A stretch of 14,671 nt of DNA from a virus (taxonomy: Duplodnaviria; Heunggongvirae; Uroviricota; Caudoviricetes), in IMG/VR virus record IMGVR_UViG_2654588181_000003; one strand, written 5' to 3'. Position 1 is the stretch's first letter; every line of letters begins with the position of its first letter. Position numbers and translations under genes: made by a program. Below, piece by piece: positions 1,776 through 14,671 of the stretch. The notes under the pieces were generated by a model, which saw only the letters and a list, made by a program, of their open reading frames with translations, was not told the origin of the DNA and did no database searches.

Positions 1776-2672
1776 CTATGACTTGCTGTTTTCAGTAAGA
1801 GTCTTATCATCCAAAGAATTTATTCTAGAAATTCTTTTTAACTCATTAAGATAATCAACCTCGTTTTCTAAGAACCAATGAAGAACTTTAGAATTGCCAA
1901 GTAATTTATTAATATATGACTGGATTATAACGAATTTCAACATATCTGAACCATACTCGGTTTGAAGCTTTTTCGTTTCTTCCGAAGTTGTTGCCATTTC
2001 TTGTTCCAGACGAAGTATGGTTTTTTTTATGTCCTTTTTATAGGGAGTGTTTTTCCCTTTATTTACTATCATCGATGCCGGTGTTGCATCCAAGATGCTC
2101 ATTGCAAATTTTTTACTATAATTATCAAAATTAATCATTGTACCGACTGCTTCAATTTGGCGAATTGGCTTCATTTTCCTCAAAACGTCAAATGTAGCCT
2201 TAGGTATAGGTTTATCAGAAAGTTTCGCAATTACACTTGAATCTATGCCGTTCATCACATTCGCTTTATCTTTTATGGCATCAACAGATATGCCCAAAGC
2301 AGCACTAAGTTTTTCAATTGATACTTTTGCCAGAGACTTAATTATCATTCTATGTTCTTCAACTACATTTATATGATTCACTTGTTTGTTAGGAGTGAAA
2401 GCATCATCTATGCTCGAAAGTATACATGGAGCTTTTTCTATACCTAAGTCTTTTAAAGCCTCAACCCTTAAATGGCCATCAAGTATCTTAGTGACATCTT
2501 TATCTTTGTCATAGAATACTATTATTGGTTCAATAATACCTAAGCTTTCGATAGAGGTAACTATTTGATGATATTTATGGCTTCGCTTTACGTTTTCTAA
2601 TAATTCCTTAGATGGAATTAACTTATTAGTTTCCAGGTAAATAAAATTATCGCCAAAACGTATCTGAATCAT
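1776..2672 (-). CDS. ParB-like (ParB/sulfiredoxin-fold) domain protein, 298 aa, distal gene of the three-gene operon
   Basis: ORF-track protein contains GIIEPIIVFYDKDKDVTKILDGHLRVEAL (ParB N-terminal box-like segment) and a helix-turn-helix-like stretch VSIEKLSAALGISVDAI. Start ATG overlaps the upstream stop (ATGA at 2669-2672). Visibly AT-rich coding sequence. Confidence 0.65.
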   Translation of the reverse strand: MIQIRFGDNFIYLETNKLIPSKELLENVKRSHKYHQIVTSIESLGIIEPIIVFYDKDKDVTKILDGHLRVEALKDLGIEKAPCILSSIDDAFTPNKQVNHINVVEEHRMIIKSLAKVSIEKLSAALGISVDAIKDKANVMNGIDSSVIAKLSDKPIPKATFDVLRKMKPIRQIEAVGTMINFDNYSKKFAMSILDATPASMIVNKGKNTPYKKDIKKTILRLEQEMATTSEETKKLQTEYGSDMLKFVIIQSYINKLLGNSKVLHWFLENEVDYLNELKRISRINSLDDKTLTENSKS

Positions 2673-3565
2673 TTTAATACCTCTTTGTTTACTGGGGTTA
2701 ATATCTGAGATGGTAGTTCTGAAAGATTCTCTTGTTCAAGTATATGTTGAAAGCTTTTATTCATCATTATGATGTTAAAAATCTCATTTACTATTAGTAG
2801 GTTGGTTTTTATGAATTTTGAGTTGTTATAAACAGATTTATGTTCAGCGATACTATTTTCATAAAGCTCAATCAACTCCTCTGCAGTCATCCTTTTTGAT
2901 GGTTTGTGATAATAAAATCCGGCTGCTTTTGCACCTTTATTCCCAACTGTTCTTTGATTTAGAATGTGTTTTATCTTTATAATGTCCCGACTTTTTATTA
3001 ATTTTTTATCATATGCTTCGGTAAGAATATCTTGTGCTTCCTCAGTTTCACATCTTGCAAATTGCACTGCGAGATACAGAGGCAAATTACCCCGTTCGAC
3101 TGCTGAGAGAAGTTTATGCTCTCCCTTATCAAGTAGCATATTAATACTGCTCACCCAGTTCGATGAATATCCAGTAATCTCACTTATTTCGGAGTCTGAA
3201 AGTCCTCTGATTTTCATGTCTTTAATCACCTGTAATAACTCATTAGAACGTGGTCTTCTCCTTGCAATGTTTTCAACTAAACTCATAACGTAAGCATCTT
3301 CTTCTGATACATCTCTTATAATTGCTGGAATAATAGTTTCACCTAATGCAACGAGAGCCTCTATTCTCCCTTGACCACAAATTAAAGCATATTTGAAATC
3401 GCCTTCATCAATAGCTCTTACGCTTATAGGCTTGCTTAATCCTCTTTTTTTTATGCTTTCCTTTATTTCTTCATGCACTACCTTATTTCTTGTTCGTGGG
3501 TTAAGAAATTTTATTTTTGCAATCTCAATTTGAATTATTGGGAATTCATTTTTTTCAGGCAGCAT
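2669..3565 (-). CDS. ParB/Spo0J-like N-terminal domain protein with helix-turn-helix, 298 aa, middle gene of the operon
   Basis: Motifs in the translation: IAKIKFLNPRTR, GLSKPISVRAIDEGDFKYALICGQGRIEAL, LVENIARRRP (ParB arginine-patch-like), and GLSDSEISEITGYSSNWVS (helix-turn-helix). SD-like GAGGG lies 6 nt upstream of the ATG at 3565. The start overlaps the recombinase 3' end by 11 nt. Confidence 0.7.
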   Translation of the reverse strand: MLPEKNEFPIIQIEIAKIKFLNPRTRNKVVHEEIKESIKKRGLSKPISVRAIDEGDFKYALICGQGRIEALVALGETIIPAIIRDVSEEDAYVMSLVENIARRRPRSNELLQVIKDMKIRGLSDSEISEITGYSSNWVSSINMLLDKGEHKLLSAVERGNLPLYLAVQFARCETEEAQDILTEAYDKKLIKSRDIIKIKHILNQRTVGNKGAKAAGFYYHKPSKRMTAEELIELYENSIAEHKSVYNNSKFIKTNLLIVNEIFNIIMMNKSFQHILEQENLSELPSQILTPVNKEVLK

Positions 3566-5111
3566 ATAGTTCCCTCACTTTCATGCGAGTAATAATTTGT
3601 AGAAGTTTATCAAGATTATCAAATCTATAGAGATCTAATCGAATGTTGTTTGTTTCCGTCATGCACATTTTATTATATTCGTTTTCAATCTTTGGTATGA
3701 TATAAAAATCAAGAGGTGAAATATTTTGTGAATTCATTCGTATAACAATTGTTATGTCTGCTTTCTGTGAGTTATCAAACCGGACTTTCCATCTAAGTTT
3801 ACCTGATTTCATATGTATGCATTTAGTAACAAGGACGGAAATTAAAAACTCATCATTGATGTAAAGCATTGGGGCATATTTATACTCGTCTATATGACAG
3901 TTACTTTTTAAAATTTCACCCTTAAAATCCTCAATTATCTCTGAGTAAAATGATCTTAGTGCTTCATTTATTTTGAGATAGCTGTAATCATGTTCTGGCT
4001 TATAACCAATCAAAGTATATGCTCTTAAAAGACCACCAAATCGGGTTCTATAAACAGAAGATGAAGGGCCTGTATCATCTTCATCAATGATAAAGCCTGA
4101 TAGTTTTCCATTAGATTCTAATTTTTGTTTTAGTTTTTCTAATAGATCTTCATTAGTCAAATGAATGGATCGGAGCTGAATTATTTCTTGAGCTTTATTG
4201 TATTTTTTCTTTGAAATAATAGGTTTATATGCCTTGTCACATCTAACCCATTCATGTTTGGGGTTTTTTACAAGCCTACTTTTTAATTTAGATGAGGTTT
4301 TGTTATATATGTTGTTTCCAATATATTTTTCATTTGTCAAAATTTGATGTATTTTTGCACGAGTCCATAATGTTCCATTTTCTGCAGGTATGTTCTGTTC
4401 ATTTAATCTCTCAGCAATAATGAATTCTGGGACGTTATTATCTATAAAGAGATCATATATTCTATTTACAATTTTTATTTCATTTTTTGGTCCCGGAATT
4501 AATATTACCCTATCTGTTTGAATACTCTTTCTTTTGCGGAAACTCAATATTTCTTTAGCTATGCCATTTTCGTCTACTAAAAGACGTCTCAGCCCATAAC
4601 CAGCCATACCGCCTTGATGATAACCAAGCTTTATTAAATTTACTTGCCCTATAAATACCTTTTCAGATAGATTCCTGCTGTGATATGCAGCACTAGATCT
4701 TTTTATATTCAGTATAACAGAGGACTCTAAAGGGAAATCTTTAGTGGGTATAGGTTCGGAACAATATATAAGATCTACACCATTTCTCTCAAATAGAAAG
4801 GAATAATATGCCGCTTCATCACTATTTTGAAAACGACCAAAACGGCTCACATCATAAAATAATACAGCCTGTATATCTATTTTCTTTTGTTCTACATCGC
4901 TAAGTAACTGCTGCAAAGAATGCCTGCCTACGATACTGACTCCGCTCTTACCTGCATCATCGTAGGTATAAGCGATTTCCATATTGTTCTTTTCAGCATA
5001 ATCTTTGATATATTCGGACTGATTATGTAAAGAATATTGCTGATGGTCGGTAGACATCCTCAAGTACTGCGCGACCCTAACTCTATGATTTTTTTCATTT
5101 TCGCTAGCCAT
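3555..5111 (-). CDS. Large serine recombinase (resolvase/invertase catalytic domain plus recombinase domain), 518 aa
   Basis: N-terminus RVAQYLRMSTDHQ carries the catalytic-serine motif (YxRxSTxxQ). DDAGKSGVS, LQQLL and DVSRFGR match the serine-recombinase catalytic core. The roughly 370-aa extension is typical of large serine recombinases (phiC31 Int / TnpX / Ccr class). GAGG lies 8 nt upstream of the ATG. Confidence 0.8.
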   Translation of the reverse strand: MASENEKNHRVRVAQYLRMSTDHQQYSLHNQSEYIKDYAEKNNMEIAYTYDDAGKSGVSIVGRHSLQQLLSDVEQKKIDIQAVLFYDVSRFGRFQNSDEAAYYSFLFERNGVDLIYCSEPIPTKDFPLESSVILNIKRSSAAYHSRNLSEKVFIGQVNLIKLGYHQGGMAGYGLRRLLVDENGIAKEILSFRKRKSIQTDRVILIPGPKNEIKIVNRIYDLFIDNNVPEFIIAERLNEQNIPAENGTLWTRAKIHQILTNEKYIGNNIYNKTSSKLKSRLVKNPKHEWVRCDKAYKPIISKKKYNKAQEIIQLRSIHLTNEDLLEKLKQKLESNGKLSGFIIDEDDTGPSSSVYRTRFGGLLRAYTLIGYKPEHDYSYLKINEALRSFYSEIIEDFKGEILKSNCHIDEYKYAPMLYINDEFLISVLVTKCIHMKSGKLRWKVRFDNSQKADITIVIRMNSQNISPLDFYIIPKIENEYNKMCMTETNNIRLDLYRFDNLDKLLQIITRMKVRELYAA

Positions 5112-5393
5112 GCACGAAACCTCATGGATGATTCAATACAATGTAGTGGATAAAATTGATCAAATTTTAACCGAATTCAACTGTTTTATCATTGATTAGA
5201 GCGAATTTGGTAGATCTTCGAGGTGTATGATAATCGAGAAGAGATGTGAATTATTTAGCTGATATGACCGACAGCTTTCGTTATGTGGACTCAATGTCCC
5301 CATTTGTAAATGGCTATGCTTAGTCCACATAGGTTAATGGTGTGATTATTAATTCTTTAACTAAATCAAGATAGTTAATCCATCATGGGAGAG

Positions 5394-6623
5394 TTATGCG
5401 GCAATAACTTTGCATTTTTGAGACGAAACATAGTCACTCCACCATTGCATGAGAACCACCCGTTCAGTGAGATACTCTGCACGATTGTAGGCTGCAATTA
5501 TTTCATCTTTCTTCGAGTGGGCAAGGGCGGCTTCTAAGACATCAGTCCTAAACTTGCCAGACTCCTCAGCAGCCGTTCTAGCAATGGATCGCATACCGTG
5601 AGCTACAAGCTCACCTCCGAAACCCATACGGATTATGGCCGCATTAGCTGTTTGTTCATGCATGTGATTGAGTGGAGCTTTGATACTGGGGAACACCCAC
5701 TCTCTATGCCCGCTGATGACTTTCATTAAATCCAAAACTCGCAAAGCTTCTTTGCTCAGTGGAACTTTGTGAGGCTTCTTCATTTTCATAAACTCCGCCG
5801 GGATGTTCCACATGCCAGTTTCAATATCAATATCTGACCATCTTGTGCGAACAGCTTCACCTGGGCGAACCCATGTGAGAAGTTGCCACTCAATCAGTAG
5901 CCTTGTTTCCAAACGGATAGAAGCATTGTTTAGAGCAACCAAGAAGCGAGGGAGTTCGGAAGGGGGTAATGCTGGCATATTCTGTTTTTTTGGCTTGCTG
6001 AACCGTTGCCCCAGGTTGTCTGCCGGGTTGAATTCTATGAGTTCTTCTGTTGCTGCATAGCGGAAAATTTCATTCAGGCGGGATATGATGCGGCGAAGTG
6101 TTTCAAGGACACCTCGTTTTTCTATGGGTTCTAAATGCTGTTTAAGCATTTTAGGGCGAATCTCCTTAATTGGGGTATCACCCAATGTGGAAAAGATATT
6201 TCTCTCTAGGCTTCGCCAGATGTCGTTAGCATGATCTTGGGAGATGCCTGACGTTTTGACTTTCTCATCAAGCCACTTCTTGGCTACTGCTTGAAATGTA
6301 TGTTCCGTGGCATCTTTCAGTGCATTGGCTTTTTGGTTGTTATGAACTTGGGGGTCTATACCATTTGTAAGCAACGACAAGTATTCATCACGTAAAGCTC
6401 GTGCCTTCGCAAGTGTAAGGTGAGGATAGGTTCCTAAGCTCACCTTAGTTCGCTTTTTGGTCACAGGCACTGCATATCTGAAATACCAATTTTTCTTCCC
6501 TCCCTTCGCCAGGGGAGCGATTCGCAACAGCAAACCATCGCCGTCAAAAAGGTTAACCTCTTTTTCGGCAGGTTTGGTGCTTTTGATTTCAGTGTCAGTG
6601 AGCTTCTTAGCGATTTTGGCCAT
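5394..6623 (-). CDS. P4-type tyrosine integrase (CP4-57 IntA-like), about 409 aa from the internal Met
   Basis: MAKIAKKLTDTEIKSTKPAEKEVNLFDGDGLLLRIAP...KNWYFRY is the characteristic P4-family integrase N-terminus. I take the start at 6623 (MAKIAKK, preceded by GAGGG 7 nt upstream) rather than the ORF-track start at 6704. It lies about 165 nt downstream of an ssrA 3'-end copy on the same strand. Confidence 0.85.
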   Translation of the reverse strand: MAKIAKKLTDTEIKSTKPAEKEVNLFDGDGLLLRIAPLAKGGKKNWYFRYAVPVTKKRTKVSLGTYPHLTLAKARALRDEYLSLLTNGIDPQVHNNQKANALKDATEHTFQAVAKKWLDEKVKTSGISQDHANDIWRSLERNIFSTLGDTPIKEIRPKMLKQHLEPIEKRGVLETLRRIISRLNEIFRYAATEELIEFNPADNLGQRFSKPKKQNMPALPPSELPRFLVALNNASIRLETRLLIEWQLLTWVRPGEAVRTRWSDIDIETGMWNIPAEFMKMKKPHKVPLSKEALRVLDLMKVISGHREWVFPSIKAPLNHMHEQTANAAIIRMGFGGELVAHGMRSIARTAAEESGKFRTDVLEAALAHSKKDEIIAAYNRAEYLTERVVLMQWWSDYVSSQKCKVIAA

Positions 6624-6721
6624 GTTTGGGACCCTCGATTTTAGGACCCATCTTCGTGGGTCCCATTCAGGGTGCCATAACTCGTAGTTCTCAGCAATTC
6701 TCACTAGACTACAATAGACGT

Positions 6722-6789: not shown

Positions 6790-6824
6790 TGGTGGAGCTG
6801 GCGGGAGTTGAACCCGTGTCCGAA
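6790..6824 (-). other. 35-nt copy of the tmRNA (ssrA) 3' end; att-site direct repeat, not a complete gene
   Basis: Minus strand reads TTCGGACACGGGTTCAACTCCCGCCAGCTCCACCA, matching the E. coli ssrA 3' terminus as I recall it with one mismatch. Similarity to ssrA stops immediately 5' of this segment (plus coordinates above 6824). Confidence 0.75.
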
Positions 6825-6899
6825 TATTTGCAATGCGTTGATTTATAACGAATAAAATTTAAAGTTGGTTCTTACGGCTCTTTTGCGGATATTTTACTA

Positions 6900-7718
6900 T
6901 CAATTCGTAGTCCTGCCATATTTACGTTTTTTCTTGCGGTTTGTTTCTGGTTTCTTCTCTCGGTTATTGTCTACTTTTTCATGTATATCCATATTGAACC
7001 AAGAAGCATGCGAAACCTCACTTAATGGAAATATGATACTGGTATCAACTCCATCAAGATCGTTGTAATCATTTGAAAACAGGACCCTTAGTGTGTCCTT
7101 GTCCCTGTAACCAGATATGATTGGGCTAATAGAAATTTCAAGGTTAGGGCCTTGTTTTTCGTTTGGCTCACTAATCATGTTAACTGTTCCGACATATACT
7201 TTGCGGCATTTCAGGCTTATCAGTACCGGTCTGTTTGTAGTCGCTGAATCAAAGAATAGCTGACCAAGTGAGCCATCAGACAACAGTTTTTCCAACTCAT
7301 TAAGCCTGATTAGTTGCTTTGCGAAATTGATAGAAATTGCATTATTGGATGCAGAACTAATAGTTTTTGCTGCCACAAACATACGAAATTTGCATATCTG
7401 CAACCAAATAAAAGCAACTCCACAAGTCGCCACTGATAGCAGGATGAGCCATGATGTTATCCTGTTTTCTTTAGGGTCTGCACTACCATCAATAAGATGT
7501 GATACCCATGTGACCAGTGTAAGGCTTGGTATAAAGTACTTGGTTGCATACGCCAGCACGACTGCAACAATGAACGAGTACACACCGTACGTGGCCACCT
7601 TCATATAGAGAAGCTGGCCGTCGTAACGGTGGAGTCGATAGAATAATTTGATGTTATGGGGCGATGTAACCAGTAAGGATCCACTTACTAAAAGTGGAAT
7701 GATCAGCAATGCAAACAT
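6900..7718 (-). CDS. Hypothetical integral membrane protein, 272 aa; three predicted N-terminal transmembrane helices, soluble C-terminal domain with a lysine/arginine-rich tail
   Basis: Hydrophobic segments FALLIIPLLVSGSLLV, YGVYSFIVAVVLAYATKYFI and ITSWLILLSVATCGVAFIWLQI; C-terminus NNREKKPETNRKKKRKYGRTTN. The ATG at 7718 is 3 nt after the upstream gene's stop codon (7722-7724). No recognisable family. Confidence 0.55.
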   Translation of the reverse strand: MFALLIIPLLVSGSLLVTSPHNIKLFYRLHRYDGQLLYMKVATYGVYSFIVAVVLAYATKYFIPSLTLVTWVSHLIDGSADPKENRITSWLILLSVATCGVAFIWLQICKFRMFVAAKTISSASNNAISINFAKQLIRLNELEKLLSDGSLGQLFFDSATTNRPVLISLKCRKVYVGTVNMISEPNEKQGPNLEISISPIISGYRDKDTLRVLFSNDYNDLDGVDTSIIFPLSEVSHASWFNMDIHEKVDNNREKKPETNRKKKRKYGRTTN

Positions 7719-7721
7719 TTG

Positions 7722-7970
7722 TTAGTCGTCATTGTCCATTGAGTTAGCTTTAGCGGCTGCAACAGCTTTTGCATCCTGCTCGACGAATTTTCTAGCTGCT
7801 TTCCTAAGCTGAGTGATTTTTTCTGGGTCAGTAGATGGGTCTACAATAACTGCACCACGCCCTACGACCTTGATGTTTTTAACACCAGATTTGTTCAAAC
7901 GATCGGCCATGGCTTGTCCGCCTTTGACCAAATCATTCAGCCCAAACATCTTCATGACTAGTTCTGACAT
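7722..7970 (-). CDS. Hypothetical small soluble protein, 82 aa, first gene of the two-gene operon
   Basis: A near-consensus SD (AGGAGG) lies 5 nt upstream of the ATG at 7970. The protein is hydrophilic and alanine/lysine-rich with an acidic C-terminus (SMDNDD). No recognisable motif. Confidence 0.55.
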   Translation of the reverse strand: MSELVMKMFGLNDLVKGGQAMADRLNKSGVKNIKVVGRGAVIVDPSTDPEKITQLRKAARKFVEQDAKAVAAAKANSMDNDD

Positions 7971-8265
7971 AAAGACCTCCTTTCAGTCCCCCCAATGTAT
8001 CCTTTTGAGGCATTTATTGCTCCCCGCAGAACGGGGCGCGGGATTTTACCATAATCTACGTACTGGCTCCAAGATTTCCCGCGTGTTCCTAGTACTAGGA
8101 CAGCTGCCTGAGTACCAAGTTCACCTATAACATATATACTTGGTTCGAATTTTTGCAAGGTAAAAAGTGCCTTATGTTTAAGTATGTATGATGTGGATAT
8201 GACGAACATAACCACATCACAAATAACTTTTTATCAGGTTTCAGTGGCTATTTGTTCGGGCAGCA

Positions 8266-8920
8266 TCAAGCCTGTTTTGTATCATTAGTATTTTTAGCGG
8301 TATGTCCGTCATATGCAGCAAGGTAACTGCCATAGTGACGAAATAGCATTTCTGGTCCCTTATGGCCCATCTGGCCTGCAAGCCAGAACAGGTTCGCACC
8401 ACGGCTGATATGGCTGGTGGCGAATGTATGCCTGGTCTGATATGGGTTACGGTACCGGATACCTGCTTTACGTAAGGTTGGTATCCACGCTTTTTTCCTT
8501 ATCGCATCGGCGCTGGCCCACGGTTTGTTTGTCTTTGGATCTTCAAAGACAGTAGCATCCTTCATGAATGTAAATGGCTTCTGATTTATCAGCGCCAACA
8601 TTGCCTCTTCTGTCAGTTCAACTTTACGAGTACCGGCTTTTGTCTTTGTTCCTTTGATAACACCGACAACACTTGCGCTCTGGACATGGGCAGTTTTTCC
8701 AACAAAGTCGATATCACGCCATCGAAGGGCACATAATTCAGAACTACGCAGGCCTGTATGTATAGCGAACCGGAACAGATTTTCCCATTGTTTGTTTCCG
8801 GCTGCTGCTAGTAATGCATCAACTTCTGCTGGTGATAGCGGATCAACCACGTAGCTGCTTTCTGCTTCTGACTTATCACTTTGGTAGCGCGAAGCAGTTA
8901 CCAACGATACGGGGTTAATT
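8266..8920 (-). pseudogene. Tyrosine integrase (phage/lambda-type) C-terminal catalytic-domain fragment; the N-terminal half is missing
   Basis: The translation ends with the catalytic region ...ELCALRWRDIDF...RKVELTEEAM...RHTFATSHISRGANLFWLAGQMGHKGPEMLFRHYGSY (R...HxxR...Y signature). The first ~40 residues of the ORF-track protein are just the antisense of the adjacent head gene, so only about 215 residues are integrase-derived. Confidence 0.7.
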
Positions 8921-8923
8921 TGA

Positions 8924-10255
8924 AGTACCCCAGCCTCCCGGACGCCAGTGCAGGCAGCAGCACCCGTGGTGGATGAAAACAGTATCCGTGCGCAGGTACT
9001 GGCAGAGCAAAAAGCGCGTGTAAACGGTATTAATGATCTGTTTGCCATGTTTGGCGGGCGTTATCAGACGCTGCAGGCTCAGTGTCTTGCCGATCCTGAA
9101 TGTTCGCTGGAGCAGGCCCGCGAAAAGCTGTTGAACGAGATGGGGCGCGAGTCCACGCCATCCAATAAAAATACCCCGGCTCATATTTATGCCGGTAACG
9201 GTAATTTTGTGGGGGACGGGATCCGCCAGGCGCTGATGGCGCGTGCCGGATTTGAAAAAACCGAACGTGATAATGTCTACAACGGGATGACCCTGCGTGA
9301 ATATGCCCGTATGTCACTGACTGAACGGGGTATTGGGGTTTCCAGTTATAACCCGATGCAGATGGTCGGTGCGGCGTTCACACACAGTACGTCTGACTTC
9401 GGTAATATTCTGCTGGATGTTGCGAACAAAGCCATTCTGCAGGGCTGGGAAGATGCCCCTGAAACCTATGAACAGTGGACGCGGAAAGGTCAGTTGTCTG
9501 ATTTTAAAATTGCCCATCGTGTGGGTATGGGGGGCTTCAGTGCTCTGCGTCAGGTGCGTGAAGGGGCGGAATATAAATACGTCACCACCGGAGATAAACA
9601 GGCCACTATTGCACTGGCGACCTATGGCGAGCTGTTCAGTATCACCCGTCAGGCCATTATCAATGATGATCTGAATATGCTGACCGATGTCCCGATGAAA
9701 CTGGGCCGTGCGGCGAAATCCACTATTGCCGATCTGGTTTATGCCATTCTGACGTCTAACCCGAAAATCTCCACAGATAATGTAAGTCTGTTCGATAAAG
9801 CAAAACATGCAAACGTACTGGAGAGCGCTGCAATGGACGTGGCATCGCTGGATAAAGCCCGCCAGTTGATGCGCGTTCAGAAAGAGGGGGAGCGTCATCT
9901 GAATATTCGTCCTGCGTTCGTACTGGTACCGACGGCGATGGAGTCTGTTGCTAACCAGGTCATTCGCTCCTCAAGTGTCAAGGGGGCTGACATTAACGCC
10001 GGTATTATTAACCCGGTGAAAGATTTTGCGACCGTTATTGCAGAGCCTCGTCTTGATGATAACAGCCAGACCACCTTCTACCTGGCTGCGTCAAAAGGCT
10101 CCGATACTATTGAAGTGGCTTATCTCAACGGTGTGGATACGCCATATATTGATCAGATGGAGGGCTTCAGTGTGGATGGCGTGACAACGAAAGTGCGTAT
10201 TGACGCCGGTGTCGCGCCAGTTGATCACCGCGGTCTGGTGAAATGTACGGCGTAA
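8924..10255 (+). pseudogene. Phage head morphogenesis protein fragment (major capsid or prohead protease/scaffold family), N-terminally truncated
   Basis: An in-frame stop at 8921-8923 precedes the open frame. The ORF track begins at a GTG (8948) with no RBS, and the frame runs directly into the antisense integrase fragment. Lambdoid head-gene order (large head protein, then a ~108-aa DUF2190-like decoration gene) supports the call. The exact family is assigned from memory only. Confidence 0.55.
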
Positions 10256-10341
10256 ACGTCGCAGACAACAACTCTGATGGCCCGTAAGGGCTTTTTTTGT
10301 ACCTGAAATCAGCCCCTGAACGGGGCTGTGCGGAGACAGTT

Positions 10342-10665
10342 ATGGCAAAGAATTTTGTAGAAGAAGGAAAAACGGTGGCGATTGTTGCCAGTGCAGCCAT
10401 CAGCAGCGGAGATCTGGTGCAGGTGGGTGATGTTTTTGCGGTGGCACTGACCGATATTCCACAGGGTGAAACAGGCGACGGCCTGACCGAAGGTGTGTTT
10501 ATGCTGCCTAAGCTGAAAACGGATGACATGAAAACGGGTAAGAAGGTTTATCTGAAGTCCGGAAAAGTTCAGCTGACTAACAGCGGCTCTGATCCGCTGG
10601 TCGGGGTTGTCTGGGCAGATGCCGGAACCAGTGCAGAAGAAGTGCCGGTAAAACTCAATGTCTGA
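10342..10665 (+). CDS. DUF2190-like phage head decoration/cement protein, 108 aa
   Basis: GGAGA lies 6 nt upstream of the ATG at 10342 (MAKNFVEEGK). The pattern GDLVQVGDVFAVALTDIPQGETGDGLTEGVFMLPK in a ~110-aa product following a head gene is typical of DUF2190 proteins. The ORF-track start at 10297 has no RBS. Confidence 0.55.
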   Translation: MAKNFVEEGKTVAIVASAAISSGDLVQVGDVFAVALTDIPQGETGDGLTEGVFMLPKLKTDDMKTGKKVYLKSGKVQLTNSGSDPLVGVVWADAGTSAEEVPVKLNV

Positions 10666-10733
10666 TCCCTTTTCCCGGCTGGCAGCGCGTATGGATGCGA
10701 TCACGGTCAGAAAGATGGGAAAGACAGCCTCGA

Positions 10734-11078
<345 letters not shown>

Positions 11079-11439
11079 TCATTGCAAGGGCTCACAACCA
11101 GTAGTGTTGAGAAAACCATCGGAGAAATGAGGCTAAGCCTTTGAATTTACATAGTACAAAAAAGATACTTTTCCTCATAATGTGAGCTAATTTTATGTTT
11201 CGTTTGATGATTGGACCGGTCTCGAAAACCGTAGACACATAGTATGCGTTAATTTATGAACAAACTACTTGTCTGCTGTTTTTCTGTCATTAGTCGTATA
11301 TAGAATGATTCTCTATGCCTAACAAAGCATCACCAGTGCTAGATTACGTTGTAGTCACTGTTTAAATATCCAGATAAAACATTTCCTTCTGGGTTGAATG
11401 AGTGATAAAGTTTCACCCATTAGACCCCTTGGAGGAATT

Positions 11440-12873
11440 ATGTCTGAATTTGAAGTGTTGGCACAGCATCTGCTGAAGGAAGCCGAGGCGGAAGAAAAGC
11501 TGCGACAGGAAAATGATAAAAAGCTTATCGAGAAAGTGCTGGAAATCTATGATCAGAAGTATGTGGCTGAATTACTGAGAAAAGTCGGAAAAAATGAGTG
11601 GAGCCGTGAAACCATTAACCGCTGGATTAATGGCAAGTGTTTACCAAAATCGTTGACTTCAGTAGAAGAGTCTCTTCTGCGTAAGATGCTACCAGAACCA
11701 CCTGCAAACCATCCGGAATATGCTTTCCGCTTCATTGACTTATTTGCTGGAATTGGAGGGATACGGAAAGGTTTTGAGGCCATTGGAGGCCAGTGTGTTT
11801 TTACCAGTGAATGGAATAAAGATGCTGTGCGTACATACAAGGCCAACTGGTTTAACGATGAACAGGTGCATAAATTCAATCTCGATATTCGGGAAGTCAC
11901 GCTGAGTGATAAAACCGATGTATTGGAAACGGATGCTTATGCATATATTGATGAGCATGTGCCGGATCATGATGTGCTTCTTGCGGGGTTCCCGTGCCAG
12001 CCATTTAGCCTTGCTGGTGTTAGTAAGAAAAACTCACTTGGTCGTGCGCATGGTTTTGAATGTGAAGCACAAGGAACACTTTTTTTTGACGTGGCACGTA
12101 TTATACGAGCAAAAAAACCGGCAATTTTTGTGCTGGAAAATGTCAAAAATCTGAAGAGCCATGATAAGGGTAAAACTTTCAAAGTCATTATGGAGACCCT
12201 TGACGAGCTGGGCTACGAAGTTGCCGATGCTGCAGAAATGGGAAAAAACGATCCAAAGATTATCGATGGGAAGCATTTTTTGCCTCAGCATCGTGAACGT
12301 ATTGTTCTGGTCGGATTTAGACGAGATCTGAATATTCACAAGGGGTTTACCTTGCGTGATATCAGTCGTTTTTATCCGGAACACCGCCCATCATTTGGTG
12401 AATTGCTGGAGCCTGTAGTCGACAGTAAATATATACTTACGCCAAAACTATGGGAGTACCTTTATAACTACGCCAAAAAGCATGCAGCCAAGGGGAATGG
12501 TTTTGGCTTTGGGTTGGTCAATCCTGAGAATAAGGAAAGCATTGCACGCACACTTTCTGCCAGATATCACAAAGACGGATCAGAAATTCTTATTGATCGT
12601 GGTTGGGATATGGCAACGGGAGAGGCTGACTTTATGAATGAGAGTAATCAGGCTCGTCGACCACGCAGGCTGACTCCCCGAGAGTGCGCACGCCTTATGG
12701 GATTTGAAAAACCTGGAGGGAAACCATTCCGTATTCCGGTTTCAGATACTCAGTCATATCGGCAGTTCGGTAACTCAGTTGTGGTGCCAGTATTTGAAGC
12801 TGTTGCCAGACTTCTGGAACCCTATATCCTCAAAGCTGTTTCTGCTGATGCTGGTAAGACTGGGCAGCCTTGA
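11440..12873 (+). CDS. ecoRIIM: DNA cytosine-5 methyltransferase, Dcm / M.EcoRII family (predicted CCWGG specificity), 477 aa
   Basis: GGAGG lies 3 nt upstream of the ATG at 11440 (MSEFEVLAQ...). The protein carries [17 protein letters not shown] (motif I, AdoMet binding), [11 protein letters not shown] (motif IV, catalytic Cys), FVLENVKNL (motif VI) and [10 protein letters not shown] (motif X). It is closely similar along its length to E. coli Dcm/M.EcoRII as recalled. Confidence 0.9.
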
Positions 12874-12879
12874 GAACAT

Positions 12880-12902
12880 CTCCCGGCCTTTTAAGCCGGG
12901 AG
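12880..12902. terminator. Perfect 8-bp stem hairpin between the convergent methyltransferase and endonuclease genes (likely bidirectional terminator/insulator)
   Basis: CTCCCGGC-cttttaa-GCCGGGAG sits in the 34-bp gap between stop codons at 12871-12873 (plus strand) and 12908-12910 (minus strand). There is no long U tract on either side, so the terminator role is tentative. Confidence 0.45.
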
Positions 12903-12907
12903 TCAGC

Positions 12908-14116
12908 CTATGATAGTTCAGCGTAAAGCTCTATCAGCTCAGTAATGAATGCTCCGAGCGTTATTAATTCTTCTCTAACTGCTTCTGGGTATTTTTTATG
13001 TAAAGTTGATGGTACAACGAGTCTGACACCCGCATCTTTCATTTCTCGGTATTGTGCTGAAGAAACACCTTCTTGCAGTGTAAATAAATGTACCTGATGG
13101 ATTTTATCTGCTTCATTCAGTATCTGACGCCAGCGATCTTTGCAGGTGGTCTTTACTGCCAGCATACGTAAGTTTTCTACAGGAAATTCAACGTTATGAT
13201 ATGCCTCTGCTGAAGGAAACAGGAAATCTGGTTTTTTATTACCTTCAGTAACTGCCTGAGTGGAGAAATGCCGTAGTCCGTGCTCGATAAAAAGCTTCTC
13301 TAGGTGAAGTTCAAGTGATTTGCCTGCCCTTGATTTACGTCGATTACTGACAGAGTTGGCTAATGCAATAAACTCATCTACAGAATCGAATCCTTTCTTA
13401 ATAATATCAATAACATGTAATTCCTCGACGAGTAGAAAAATATCATACTCGACACGCCGACGGTCAATCAGTTGCTCATCTGGATCCTTGGAGTTTTTAG
13501 CATAATGGCCAGCAGCATATTGAATAATTTCGTTTCCAGAAGGAAAACGCTTCTTCCAGTCTTCAGGAATAACATATTTATGATTTACTGGAGTTTGCTG
13601 AAGAGACAATCCGCCCAAAATTTGTCCGGCAGGGCCGGAAATTAGGGTTCCAGGTATGATTTCGCCAATAGCAGACTCGATGATATCCTCTTCATCGGGA
13701 TTGACGCAGACCCATATATCTACCTCGGAACAGTCAGTGTTCTGTTCGTTTAACCTGAAAGCAAGAATTGTGAGGGCTCCTGTATTTTCAGGGTTCTGTA
13801 ATGGACTTCCTCTCCCCCAGCGCGTAATTCTTTTTTCGTTTCGGGTCTTACCAAAATAACGGTTGTTGTAATAAATTGCGCGTGCTTGGGTATCAGGGCA
13901 ATCATGGGATGATACATGCGCAGTAAGGAAGACTGAAGGGTTCAGTTCGCGAGTATGATTGATAGATGGAAAAAGCTTTTCAACGATATTTGAGGGGATA
14001 TAAAGTCCGACCTGATGGCCACCTGTTGCGCCTGTGTCGTTTGCAGAAAGGCGTTTGATGTAGATAAAGTAATTCCCGCTTGCGATATCAAGCAGCCAGT
14101 TATGAAAAACCGACAT
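12908..14116 (-). CDS. ecoRIIR: EcoRII-like type IIE restriction endonuclease (CCWGG), 402 aa
   Basis: The translation from the second Met (MSVFHNWLLDIASGNYFIYIKRLSANDTGATGGHQVGLYIPS...) matches EcoRII as I remember it nearly end to end, including the N-terminal effector-binding domain and the C-terminal catalytic domain. AGGGA lies 5 nt upstream of the ATG at 14116. Convergent with the methyltransferase, as in the EcoRII system. Confidence 0.9.
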   Translation of the reverse strand: MSVFHNWLLDIASGNYFIYIKRLSANDTGATGGHQVGLYIPSNIVEKLFPSINHTRELNPSVFLTAHVSSHDCPDTQARAIYYNNRYFGKTRNEKRITRWGRGSPLQNPENTGALTILAFRLNEQNTDCSEVDIWVCVNPDEEDIIESAIGEIIPGTLISGPAGQILGGLSLQQTPVNHKYVIPEDWKKRFPSGNEIIQYAAGHYAKNSKDPDEQLIDRRRVEYDIFLLVEELHVIDIIKKGFDSVDEFIALANSVSNRRKSRAGKSLELHLEKLFIEHGLRHFSTQAVTEGNKKPDFLFPSAEAYHNVEFPVENLRMLAVKTTCKDRWRQILNEADKIHQVHLFTLQEGVSSAQYREMKDAGVRLVVPSTLHKKYPEAVREELITLGAFITELIELYAELS

Positions 14117-14193
14117 ATACATCCCTTTGTTAACATACAGTCAGGGTTAACATTTTTCCATAGTTATAGATAAGCGGCTAGGAACTTAAGGGA

Positions 14194-14227
14194 AAAACAA
14201 AAAGCCCGCATAAGCGGGCTTTTGTGT
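14194..14227. terminator. Bidirectional rho-independent terminator
   Basis: AAAAACAAAA-AGCCCGC-ataa-GCGGGCT-TTTTG: a 7-bp GC stem with a 4-nt loop, an A tract upstream and a T tract downstream, so it reads as a terminator on either strand. It sits about 80 bp upstream of the endonuclease start. Confidence 0.6.
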
Positions 14228-14533
14228 CACTCGAGAGCCGCGGCTCCTTTGCGTATCCTTTTTTGTCTCCTCACCGTCTGGTCGGTGTCCTGCTGAGACT
14301 GCTAACTTCCTGTTTTTGTTGGTGTTGTCCTTACACCGTCCAATCATGATTGGTGGGCTGGCGGAGTTTGAATAAATATTATATTGCTTTGATTTTTAAC
14401 GATTTTGTTTAATTCAGTTTTTGTGCGTATACCTAATCGTATACCAATGGCTGTAAGTTAATGTGAAATGAAAGCGCATTTTTACTTGGATTGATGCTAT
14501 ATCGTACAGGAAAAAAATTTTTTTTCGAAAGAA

Positions 14534-14626
14534 CTGTTCACACTGTTCACCCTTTGATTTTCTCCTTTTATTTCATAGTGATAGGTGGTGAATAATGGGT
14601 GAAGGGTGAACATTCGATTCTTCACC
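14534..14626. repeat. Cluster of six GTTCAC/GGTGAA hexamer repeats in both orientations; candidate operator or iteron array
   Basis: GTTCAC at 14536-14541 and 14545-14550 (tandem CTGTTCAC units); GGTGAA at 14587-14592, 14598-14603 and 14605-14610; TTCACC at 14621-14626. The arrays flank an AT-rich core; a 6-bp-stem palindrome CCGGCAttcTGCCGG follows at 14628-14642. Confidence 0.4.
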
Positions 14627-14671
14627 TCCGGCATTCTGCCGGTGTGACTCATACCGGTGATTAATCCCCCG

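Follow-up and report, generated by a model that had tools for sequence, protein, structure and literature searches.

The window (the whole stretch of DNA that was analysed, 14,671 nucleotides of a Caudoviricetes record) carries two convergent genes, an ecoRIIM-like gene for a C5-cytosine methyltransferase, hereafter M, and an ecoRIIR-like gene for an endonuclease, hereafter R, together with the features collected in Table 1. Both reading frames are free of internal stops and of frameshifts, and their stop codons are separated by a gap of 34 bp (12874-12907). An earlier reading made from the sequence only had described an intact Dcm/M.EcoRII-like methyltransferase and a full-length EcoRII-like endonuclease with both of its domains, each preceded by a good ribosome-binding site, converging on a 34-bp gap with a perfect 8-bp stem, and it had noted the lack of a vsr-like gene at the 3' end of M. 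All of this was borne out, including the last point, as a tblastn search of the window with the K-12 Vsr protein returned no homologue (top match E=7.5).

Table 1. Features of the restriction-modification cassette and of the prophage remains around it, in window coordinates.
Feature	Position	Strand	Description and evidence
Rest of decayed prophage	6790..10736	.	ssrA repeat, phage ORFs, integrase, protease-capsid fusion, decoration gene
Exact ssrA 3'-end repeat	6790-6812	-	
Two phage ORFs	6900-7970		Function not assigned
Truncated integrase	8266-9048		
Protease-capsid fusion	8948-10255		N-terminally truncated
Head decoration gene	10297-10665		
PD-T4-3/CMoRE remnant, GIY-YIG endonuclease	10734..11033	-	First 99 of 257 codons; Pfam LEM-3_GIY-YIG
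Left flank specific to the R-M module	11235..11357	.	From the end of CMoRE-module homology to the start of EcoRII homology
M leader, promoter/operator candidate	11358..11439	+	Inverted repeats CCAGA..TCTGG and GTGATA..TCAC; Shine-Dalgarno
M gene, ecoRIIM-like	11440..12873	+	477-aa C5-cytosine methyltransferase with N-terminal regulatory domain; Pfam, NCBIfam, identity, motifs
Stem-loop between the convergent stops	12880..12902	.	8-bp perfect stem, 7-nt loop
R gene, ecoRIIR-like	12908..14116	-	402-aa Type IIE endonuclease, N-terminal effector and C-terminal catalytic domain; Pfam, PDB 1NA6
R upstream region	14117..14190	-	Conserved TATAAC / ATGGAAAAATG block; aligned with plasmid EcoRII and 18 relatives
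Phage attP flank, ssrA-proximal prophage end	14199..14372	-	Intrinsic terminator and degenerate ssrA 3'-end copy (~14350-14372)

The open reading frame of M spans 11398-12873, and its real start is the ATG at 11440, which lies 4 nt downstream of a GGAGG Shine-Dalgarno sequence and yields a protein of 477 aa. A 491-aa product starting at the ATG at 11398 was rejected: the 14-codon extension is frame-shifted by 1-nt indels in several relatives, and since this ATG is out of frame in five of them (L021, L030, L035, L037 and L071) the extension is non-coding. As its frame is broken by indels while the DNA itself is conserved, it is better understood as a regulatory leader. The M protein matches the Pfam families DNA_meth_N (6.6e-27, residues 28-84) and DNA_methylase (PF00145, 4.4e-78), scores 927 bits against the NCBIfam model PRK10458 (cut-off 710), and carries the motifs FAGIGG, PCQPFS, ENV, QHRER and GNSV at residues 102, 185, 233, 283 and 444, respectively, the catalytic cysteine being that of PCQ. 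It is 90.6% identical to the M.EcoRII protein of plasmid EcoRII, for which pACN001-A served as reference, and 64% identical to K-12 Dcm. Between the window and plasmid genes dN/dS is 0.034, at a dS of ~1.6, so that M is under purifying selection. From these comparisons M is predicted to methylate CCWGG. The N-terminal domain (PF18284) is also present; in M.EcoRII this domain mediates autorepression, and the same is predicted here by analogy.

The evidence for R is of the same kind. Both Pfam domains of EcoRII, a Type IIE/IIP endonuclease specific for CCWGG, are found far above their cut-offs, EcoRII-N, the B3-like effector domain, at residues 16-163 (3.9e-61) and EcoRII-C, the PD-(D/E)XK catalytic domain, at residues 227-391 (3.6e-71), and PDB 1NA6 aligns over the full length (residues 1-401, E=2.5e-242). 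R is ~87% identical to the crystallised EcoRII and 86.6% identical to the plasmid protein. In a gap-free alignment of 404 codons with plasmid EcoRII, residues E271, D299, K324, E337 and Y308 are identical; the first four, in EcoRII numbering, are those that we take, from the structural literature, to be the catalytic residues. Purifying selection is evident for this gene as well (dN/dS 0.050 against plasmid EcoRII, dS ~1.6). The start at ATG 14116 is preceded, 5 nt upstream, by the Shine-Dalgarno sequence AAGGGA. An alternative start at ATG 14122, which would give the 404 aa of the PDB entry, was discarded, for the relatives keep the ATG at 14116 and not the one at 14122.

Homology to plasmid EcoRII starts abruptly at 11358, and from there to the start codon of M the leader is near-invariant in 18 relatives, while the DNA further upstream is unrelated. 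This leader is probably the promoter and operator of M; M.EcoRII is known to repress its own promoter (review PMC12707154, citing Som & Friedman 1994). On the other side of the cassette, the conserved TATAAC / ATGGAAAAATG block probably contains the promoter of R, which is predicted to be weak by consensus, with TATAAC at -10 and a poor match at -35. The left flank listed in Table 1 is delimited by a prophage that carries CMoRE and lacks the R-M genes (ETEC1739, L091) and that matches the window just up to 11234.

In the gap between the two genes, the stem is formed by CTCCCGGC (12880-12887) and GCCGGGAG (12895-12902), and in RNA of the R sense it grows to 10 pairs closing a 3-nt loop. Taken alone the hairpin is statistically unremarkable, with a fold z-score of -1.3 against shuffled sequences (single sequence, 66-nt context). 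Comparison with relatives tells more: of 31 related loci without vsr, 28 have a stem in the corresponding position, every cell of the alignment of 16 distinct sequences pairs, and three of the eight pairs change on both sides. In plasmid EcoRII the stem is kept and its flanks have diverged. Judged by this alignment, the stem is real, conserved and covarying. A canonical bidirectional terminator can be dismissed, given that no T-run follows the hairpin on either strand, that a terminator consensus scan raised no flag and that the z-score is only -1.3; with no U-tract, a role of the hairpin in termination is uncertain.

The surroundings of the cassette are those of a decayed prophage. The attP flank is 90% identical to the attP and tmRNA-pseudogene region of phage LLS and contains a strong terminator on the minus strand (14223-14200; 10 pairs followed by a T-run, fold z-score -4.4). 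At the corresponding position the real ssrA gene starts in strains MB06171, IAI39 and EC20017429. Within the window, Rfam and ARAGORN detected no tRNA, tmRNA or structured RNA genes, and the only pieces of ssrA are the 23-nt att repeats. At the other side of the cassette, window positions 10600-10736 are 100% identical to positions 2398-2534 of a related locus (L001), after which the alignment jumps to its position 19436. This jump points to a deletion of 16.9 kb in the window prophage, with its junction at 10735/10736, and because of this deletion the neighbouring CMoRE gene was cut to 99 codons. Seven independent contexts of the cassette were examined, and each is the end of a prophage except for one, a circular phage genome; in five chromosomal contexts the cassette visibly adjoins ssrA or a further element integrated there, and in strain Sanji it is presumably linked to ssrA as well. 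The same slot holds the cassette in intact lambdoid prophages, in myovirus-type prophages and in a circular phage genome of 43.6 kb. The varied coordinates of the matches had raised the suspicion of a spread over many chromosomal sites, which the chromosomal contexts examined dispelled by proving to be prophage ends at the ssrA locus. The cassette therefore belongs to the prophage, as the occupant of an attP-proximal accessory slot of ssrA-integrating phages. The sequence-only reading had placed it on an island beside prophage debris, which stands with the correction that the cassette is itself part of that prophage. Among deposited phage genomes none carries the cassette: at the DNA level only the attP flank is matched (phage LLS), and at the protein level the matches are distant and limited to Burkholderia phage KL3 and two faecal contigs.

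The allele of R found here (at least 99.3% identity) is present in 262 of 5426 complete E. coli genomes (~5%) and is annotated in RefSeq. This count comes from a search with R only, as a broader figure of 379 genomes had mixed the window allele with plasmid EcoRII. The allele occupies 263 chromosomal places and four on records labelled as plasmids; a single one of these four was inspected, and it proved to be a circular phage genome. In an evenly spaced sample of 40 E. coli matches, R is a single 1209-bp piece in 39, at that identity and with no net indel; such high identity could reflect recent spread by phages rather than selection within E. coli. A literature search by RefSeq protein accession found no mention of the protein. 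EcoRII has classically been described on a conjugative plasmid, and the chromosomal site had accordingly been flagged as remarkable. The site is indeed chromosomal, but it is not unusual, in view of the 262 annotated genomes; many EcoRII-type relatives also lie on Mb-sized contigs. A chromosomal location is common for EcoRII-type systems, and the plasmid location of EcoRII is historical, not mechanistic.

Taken together, these observations make it very probable that the window encodes a functional, CCWGG-specific Type IIE restriction-modification system of the EcoRII type, carried as a moron cassette at the attP-proximal end of a degraded ssrA-integrating prophage. The specificity, activity, regulation and biological role that we infer for it would be as follows. 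By homology, M would methylate the inner cytosine of CCWGG, and its N-terminal domain would repress the M promoter in the conserved leader. R, also by homology, would be autoinhibited by its own N-terminal effector domain and would cleave unmethylated CCWGG only when at least two sites are bound at the same time, with 5mC at the inner cytosine preventing the cut. The two genes would be transcribed convergently, each from its own promoter, and the GC-rich stem-loop may mark or protect the 3' ends of both mRNAs and limit read-through, although the absence of U-tracts sets it apart from canonical intrinsic terminators.

What such a system would do depends on the host methylase. The dcm-vsr pair is found in 5359 of the 5426 complete E. 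coli genomes (98.8%). In a dcm+ host the cassette could be established without risk to the host, since Dcm already makes the methylation in question, and because ~99% of E. coli genomes have dcm-vsr it would restrict only DNA arriving from Dcm-negative donors. This is consistent with work on plasmids, in which those from dcm+ donors escape EcoRII and those from dcm- donors are restricted (PMC11602122). Loss of the cassette from a dcm+ host would likewise not be lethal, which would make it a weak addiction module. A mainly selfish cassette, stabilising the prophage or its remnant through post-segregational killing by residual R, is thus improbable. Plasmid EcoRII is known to kill in this way (PMC3874152), and the cassette has survived here despite the 16.9-kb loss next to it and that of most of the neighbouring gene; yet the CCWGG sites are also methylated by chromosomal Dcm, which suppresses EcoRII-mediated killing (PMC3874152, PMC2993543), almost every complete E. 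coli genome carries dcm-vsr, and there are carriers whose R has been inactivated. Overall, addiction is an unlikely role for the window system.

The inactivated copies bear on a further alternative, in which R is silent or inactive and the cassette serves as a second, phage-supplied Dcm that keeps the CCWGG sites of phage progeny fully methylated and thereby protects them in EcoRII hosts. R is frameshifted in strain H2, where M is intact, and split in strain 203740, so the loss of restriction is tolerated, and the redundancy of M with Dcm would make R dispensable; plasmid-borne dcm genes, moreover, give ~2700-fold protection against EcoRII (PMC11602122). A silent R would, however, hardly be expected to keep its low dN/dS, its catalytic residues, its start codon and its upstream block, or to lack net indels in nearly all of the sampled carriers, and we regard this alternative as having little chance of being correct. 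Finally, a drift of specificity away from CCWGG (to CCNGG or a subset, for example), which would make the system non-redundant with Dcm, is highly improbable: ~13% of R residues differ from EcoRII and R gives weak matches to the related catalytic domains of Ecl18kI (CCNGG) and PspGI, but the target-recognition stretch of M (residues 296-405) is 95.5% identical to that of plasmid M.EcoRII and largely common to Dcm, a change of specificity in R alone would be lethal, and the substitutions in R are spread evenly, its N domain being 86.0% identical to that of EcoRII and its C domain 86.9%.

Apart from the EcoRII-type pair itself, the truncated neighbour of M merits attention. The full-length CMoRE homologue of strain WAT is recognised by PADLOC as PD-T4-3 (7.4e-139) and matches PDB 9U75 (6.6e-170), and CMoRE has been described as a Type IV enzyme that depends on 5hmC or glucosyl-5hmC (PMC12923530). 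In all the intact contexts that were examined, CMoRE lies next to M and is transcribed divergently from it. The intact cassette might then be a paired, two-tier "cytosine-state" defence module beside attP, in which DNA with unmodified CCWGG would fall to R and DNA with 5hmC or glucosyl-5hmC to CMoRE, leaving the 5mC made by M and the host Dcm as the sole safe state; the pairing would have been selected, and the lineage of the window would have lost the Type IV half. We put this forward as a speculative and rather unlikely reading; CMoRE also occurs without the R-M genes (~867 genomes, versus 262 for R).

As a close orthologue, under strong constraint, of a restriction enzyme that ranks among the best studied, the system holds little value for enzymology. 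Its value for population biology is modest and lies in the presence of a full EcoRII-type system on temperate phages in ~5% of complete E. coli genomes, where pre-immunisation by Dcm is near-universal. This is a convenient natural setting in which to study the advantage of a restriction system whose host already has an isospecific orphan methylase, the candidate answers being a barrier between species (not between strains), the protection of phage progeny, and simple hitch-hiking on the CMoRE gene beside it. For annotation, the locus is best recorded as a prophage-borne Type II restriction-modification system adjoining a truncated PD-T4-3/CMoRE gene.

With respect to known systems, one comparison is with Burkholderia phage KL3, a temperate phage with a CCWGG-type module composed of an EcoRII-C endonuclease, Vsr and an EcoRII-type methylase (PMC3091744). 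Its endonuclease aligns only to residues 169-395 of the window R, at 38.6% identity (tblastn), and its three genes, vsr included, are co-directional. Chromosomal EcoRII-like clusters that bear vsr, such as those of Yersinia, Rouxiella, Pseudomonas, Hyphomonas and Lachnospiraceae, share with the window a two-domain EcoRII-family endonuclease and a Dcm-family methyltransferase. Of 80 EcoRII-like loci, 38 have a vsr homologue in the cluster, which often separates M from R, and it is found in none of those whose R is at least 73% identical to that of the window.

The dcm-vsr locus of E. coli resembles the window in the methyltransferase subfamily (PRK10458), the motifs, most of the recognition region and the predicted product, C(5mC)WGG. 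It differs in that Dcm is only 64% identical to M, overlaps vsr, lacks an endonuclease partner and lies in the core genome at yedJ-dcm-vsr-yedA, a neighbourhood other than that of the window. The sequence-only reading had contrasted the layout of the cassette with that of dcm-vsr, and rightly so; as a departure from the EcoRII norm the layout fails, because plasmid EcoRII and the whole clade match it.

The closest system is EcoRII of plasmid N3 and its relatives, compared through pACN001-A and the PDB entries 1NA6, 3HQF and 3HQG, with an M of 477 aa bearing an N-terminal regulatory domain, a two-domain R of 402/404 aa, a convergent arrangement without vsr in which a gap of 33 bp (34 in the window) contains the same CTCCCGG..CCGGGAG stem, and, as further conserved parts, the leader of M and the block upstream of R. 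The differences are the ~79-81% nucleotide identity to the window pair (dS ~1.6) and the location, the window cassette being in an ssrA prophage slot, with flanks unrelated beyond 11358 and ~14190. In the EcoRII clade as a whole, it is the norm for M and R to converge, without vsr, on a covarying hairpin; the features singled out earlier are thus ordinary within it, and the window system is an intact, uncharacterised and unexceptional relative of classic EcoRII.

The methyltransferase (M) and endonuclease (R) genes form a real EcoRII-type restriction-modification (R-M) system, as had been proposed by the sequence-only reading, which described an intact, convergent pair with a 34-bp gap, a perfect 8-bp stem and no vsr-like gene overlapping the methyltransferase 3' end. 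The ORF listing and direct reading confirm its coordinates and its description of both genes, gap and stem, no Vsr homologue is present within the window, and the domains, the identities to the plasmid enzymes and the low dN/dS uphold the interpretation. R comprises EcoRII-N and EcoRII-C domains, can be aligned over its full length with crystallised EcoRII (1NA6; E=2.5e-242) and retains its residues E271, D299, K324, E337 and Y308. It is 86.6% identical, without gaps, to the endonuclease of plasmid EcoRII (pACN001-A), and the differences are distributed evenly across both domains. M presents DNA_meth_N and DNA_methylase domains, scores 927 bits against NCBIfam PRK10458 (cut-off 710) and is 90.6% identical to the pACN001-A methylase, compared with 64% for K-12 Dcm. 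All C5-methyltransferase motifs are found in M, whose sequence between motifs VIII and IX shares 95.5% identity with M.EcoRII, so that CCWGG specificity can safely be inferred; set against this likeness, an altered specificity of the system is the less likely reading. With respect to plasmid EcoRII, R has a dN/dS of 0.050 and M one of 0.034, at a dS of about 1.6, where synonymous sites are near saturation. These values are those of an old, strongly constrained EcoRII orthologue, not a decaying copy, and beside them a silent R, with M protecting the phage progeny, appears less probable.

Coordinates of the R-M genes and neighbouring features
Feature	Position	Strand	Details	Source
M ORF	11440-12873	+	ATG at 11440, GGAGG upstream; stop TGA 12871-12873	ORF listing, direct reading
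R ORF	12908-14116	-	AAGGGA upstream; alternative ATG 14122; stop TAG read from 12910-12908	ORF listing, direct reading
Gap between stop codons			34 bp	
Central stem	12880-12887 and 12895-12902		CTCCCGGC and GCCGGGAG; perfect 8 bp, 7-nt loop	
PD-T4-3/CMoRE remnant	10734-11033	-	first 99 of 257 codons left	
Intrinsic terminator	14223-14200	-	strong; 10-bp stem and T-run, fold z=-4.4	
ssrA 3'-end repeat, exact	6790-6812	-		
ssrA 3'-end repeat, degenerate	~14350-14372	-	one deletion and substitutions	

The start of M is assigned to 11440 because in several relatives 1-nt indels separate the upstream in-frame ATG at 11398 from the M reading frame; for R, the ATG at 14116 is kept in relatives, whereas that at 14122 is not. 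Homology to plasmid EcoRII upstream of M starts abruptly at 11358, and the next 80 nt hardly vary across 18 relatives, whose sequences beyond this block are unrelated. This leader contains two inverted repeats, CCAGA..TCTGG and GTGATA..TCAC, and fits the autorepression of the ecoRIIM promoter by the N-terminal domain of the methylase, as described in a review (PMC12707154). In Pantoea sp. R13S299, the 9-bp unit CCCATAAGA of the conserved M leader is repeated in tandem ~11 times just before the Shine-Dalgarno sequence; such an array may work as a length-variable switch for expression of the methylase. Upstream of R, a conserved TATAAC / ATGGAAAAATG block is likely its promoter. The terminator, part of the phage attP flank, follows the ssrA-like 3' end at a distance of ~125 nt and directly precedes the R promoter region; in lysogens it probably serves as a phage-supplied terminator of ssrA and shields R from read-through.

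As a single sequence, the hairpin between M and R is unremarkable (z-score -1.3) and has no U-tract; on the R-sense RNA its stem grows to 10 pairs. Of 31 related loci whose two genes converge directly, 28 nevertheless show a GC-rich stem in this position. When 16 distinct sequences are aligned, every cell is paired and three of the eight stem pairs are altered on both sides, while sliding the partner columns as a control lowers pairing to ~30-55%. Taken together, this comparative evidence identifies the hairpin as a conserved RNA or DNA structure between convergent genes, with a presumed role in setting 3' ends or stopping read-through. Three vsr-less relatives, Kluyvera sichuanensis, Phytobacter and Rouxiella silvae, have no intergenic hairpin, and their convergent genes are 12, 3 and 0 bp apart, respectively. 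The absence of vsr is a property of the clade and not of this window alone: none of the loci whose R is at least 73% identical to the window's R carries it, and the 38 of 80 EcoRII-family loci that do (Yersinia, Rouxiella, Pseudomonas, Hyphomonas, Lachnospiraceae and others) are mostly more distant, often with vsr between M and R.

Positions 10735-14368 share 98.5-99.9% identity with a module that lies at the end of intact prophages, either lambdoid siphovirus-type (strains WAT and MB06171) or e14-like or Mu-tail myovirus-type (IAI39, EC20017429, Sanji and AR_0013), and the module also occurs in a circular phage genome of 43.6 kb that was deposited as a plasmid (strain CT01). In every context examined, its place is between the tail-fibre genes and attP/ssrA. 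The attP/"tmRNA pseudogene" region of phage LLS, a phage without the cassette, is matched by window 14199-14368. Positions 10600-10736 are identical to 2398-2534 of the WAT-type lambdoid prophage (locus L001), after which the match jumps to 19436. The 16.9-kb deletion (L001 2535-19435; junction 10735/10736, flanks with a 2-bp overlap) took everything from the gene after the head-decoration gene, including all tail genes, to the tail fibres and on into CMoRE. The R-M system therefore forms one element with the prophage debris, which refines the sequence-only reading, where the system was placed on an island next to such debris.

The two ssrA repeats bound a prophage remnant of 7.6 kb, with a truncated integrase, an N-terminally truncated protease-capsid fusion and a head decoration gene, and the window belongs to a tandem array of ssrA-integrated elements. 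Adjoining the distal att site, 6900-7970 (-) encodes two phage ORFs of 272 aa (phrog_3630) and 82 aa (phrog_35771), neither with Pfam or PADLOC matches, in a position corresponding to LLS gene 31, between attP and int. Left of the remnant, a separate integrated element (1776-6704, -) encodes two ParB/RepB-like proteins, a 518-aa large serine recombinase and, abutting the att repeat, a 436-aa tyrosine integrase; many E. coli strains (e.g. 042) share this element at ~99% identity, and in strain H2 a DarT/NADAR pair lies just past it. To the right of the att remnant, 14373-14671 runs on, in AR_0013, into a P4-like satellite, also at ssrA, with primase-helicase, Icd-like and ogr/delta-like genes.

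Divergent from M lies the remnant of PD-T4-3/CMoRE, whose full-length homologue in strain WAT matches PADLOC PD-T4-3 at 7.4e-139 and PDB 9U75 at 6.6e-170; CMoRE is a Type IV endonuclease of the GIY-YIG family and cleaves DNA with 5hmC or glucosyl-5hmC (PMC12923530). The gene is full length beside the same cassette in WAT, MB06171, IAI39, EC20017429 and AR_0013, and frameshifted in Sanji. Its gene region is matched in 867 complete genomes (at least 80% of the query in 801); in a spread sample, most matches end ~200 bp upstream of the CMoRE start, before M, and the one such locus opened, in ETEC1739, has no R-M genes. These boundaries place the R-M module proper at ~11235-14198.

At an identity of at least 99.3%, the R allele is carried by 262 of 5426 complete E. 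coli genomes; 263 of its places are chromosomal and four lie in plasmid records, the one examined among these four being a circular phage genome. R is one 1209-bp piece in 39 of 40 evenly spaced hits; among carriers it is split in one strain and frameshifted in H2. Since dcm-vsr, the chromosomal orphan methylase and repair endonuclease, is present in 5359 of the 5426 genomes, nearly all carriers are also Dcm+. By homology with EcoRII, M would methylate the inner cytosine of CCWGG, and R would be autoinhibited, needing to bind several unmethylated sites before it cleaves. For a Dcm+ species three consequences would follow, each backed by published work: establishment of the cassette would be safe, its loss would be non-lethal because Dcm suppresses EcoRII killing (PMC3874152, PMC2993543), and restriction would be limited to DNA from Dcm-negative sources; for EcoRII, plasmids from dcm+ donors are unrestricted and those from dcm- donors clearly restricted (PMC11602122). 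An addiction module, with such suppression of killing, is a less likely account of the cassette. The window has somewhat fewer CCWGG sites than expected (10, compared with 18.1 ± 4.3 in 200 dinucleotide-preserving shuffles, all with at least 10); M contains one of them (12712) and R another (13650).

The system is an ordinary one, an uncharacterised EcoRII allele with the standard architecture of its clade, already annotated in RefSeq and located in a prophage accessory slot of a known type. The sole mildly interesting angle is its repeated pairing with CMoRE and the survival of a restriction system largely neutralised by the host Dcm. EcoRII-family proteins are plentiful in Enterobacterales, many on Mb-sized contigs, and plasmid EcoRII is found at ~80% nucleotide identity on more than 580 plasmids. 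No close full-length homologue was found in deposited phage genomes, where Burkholderia phage KL3 comes nearest with its EcoRII-C/Vsr/methylase module.
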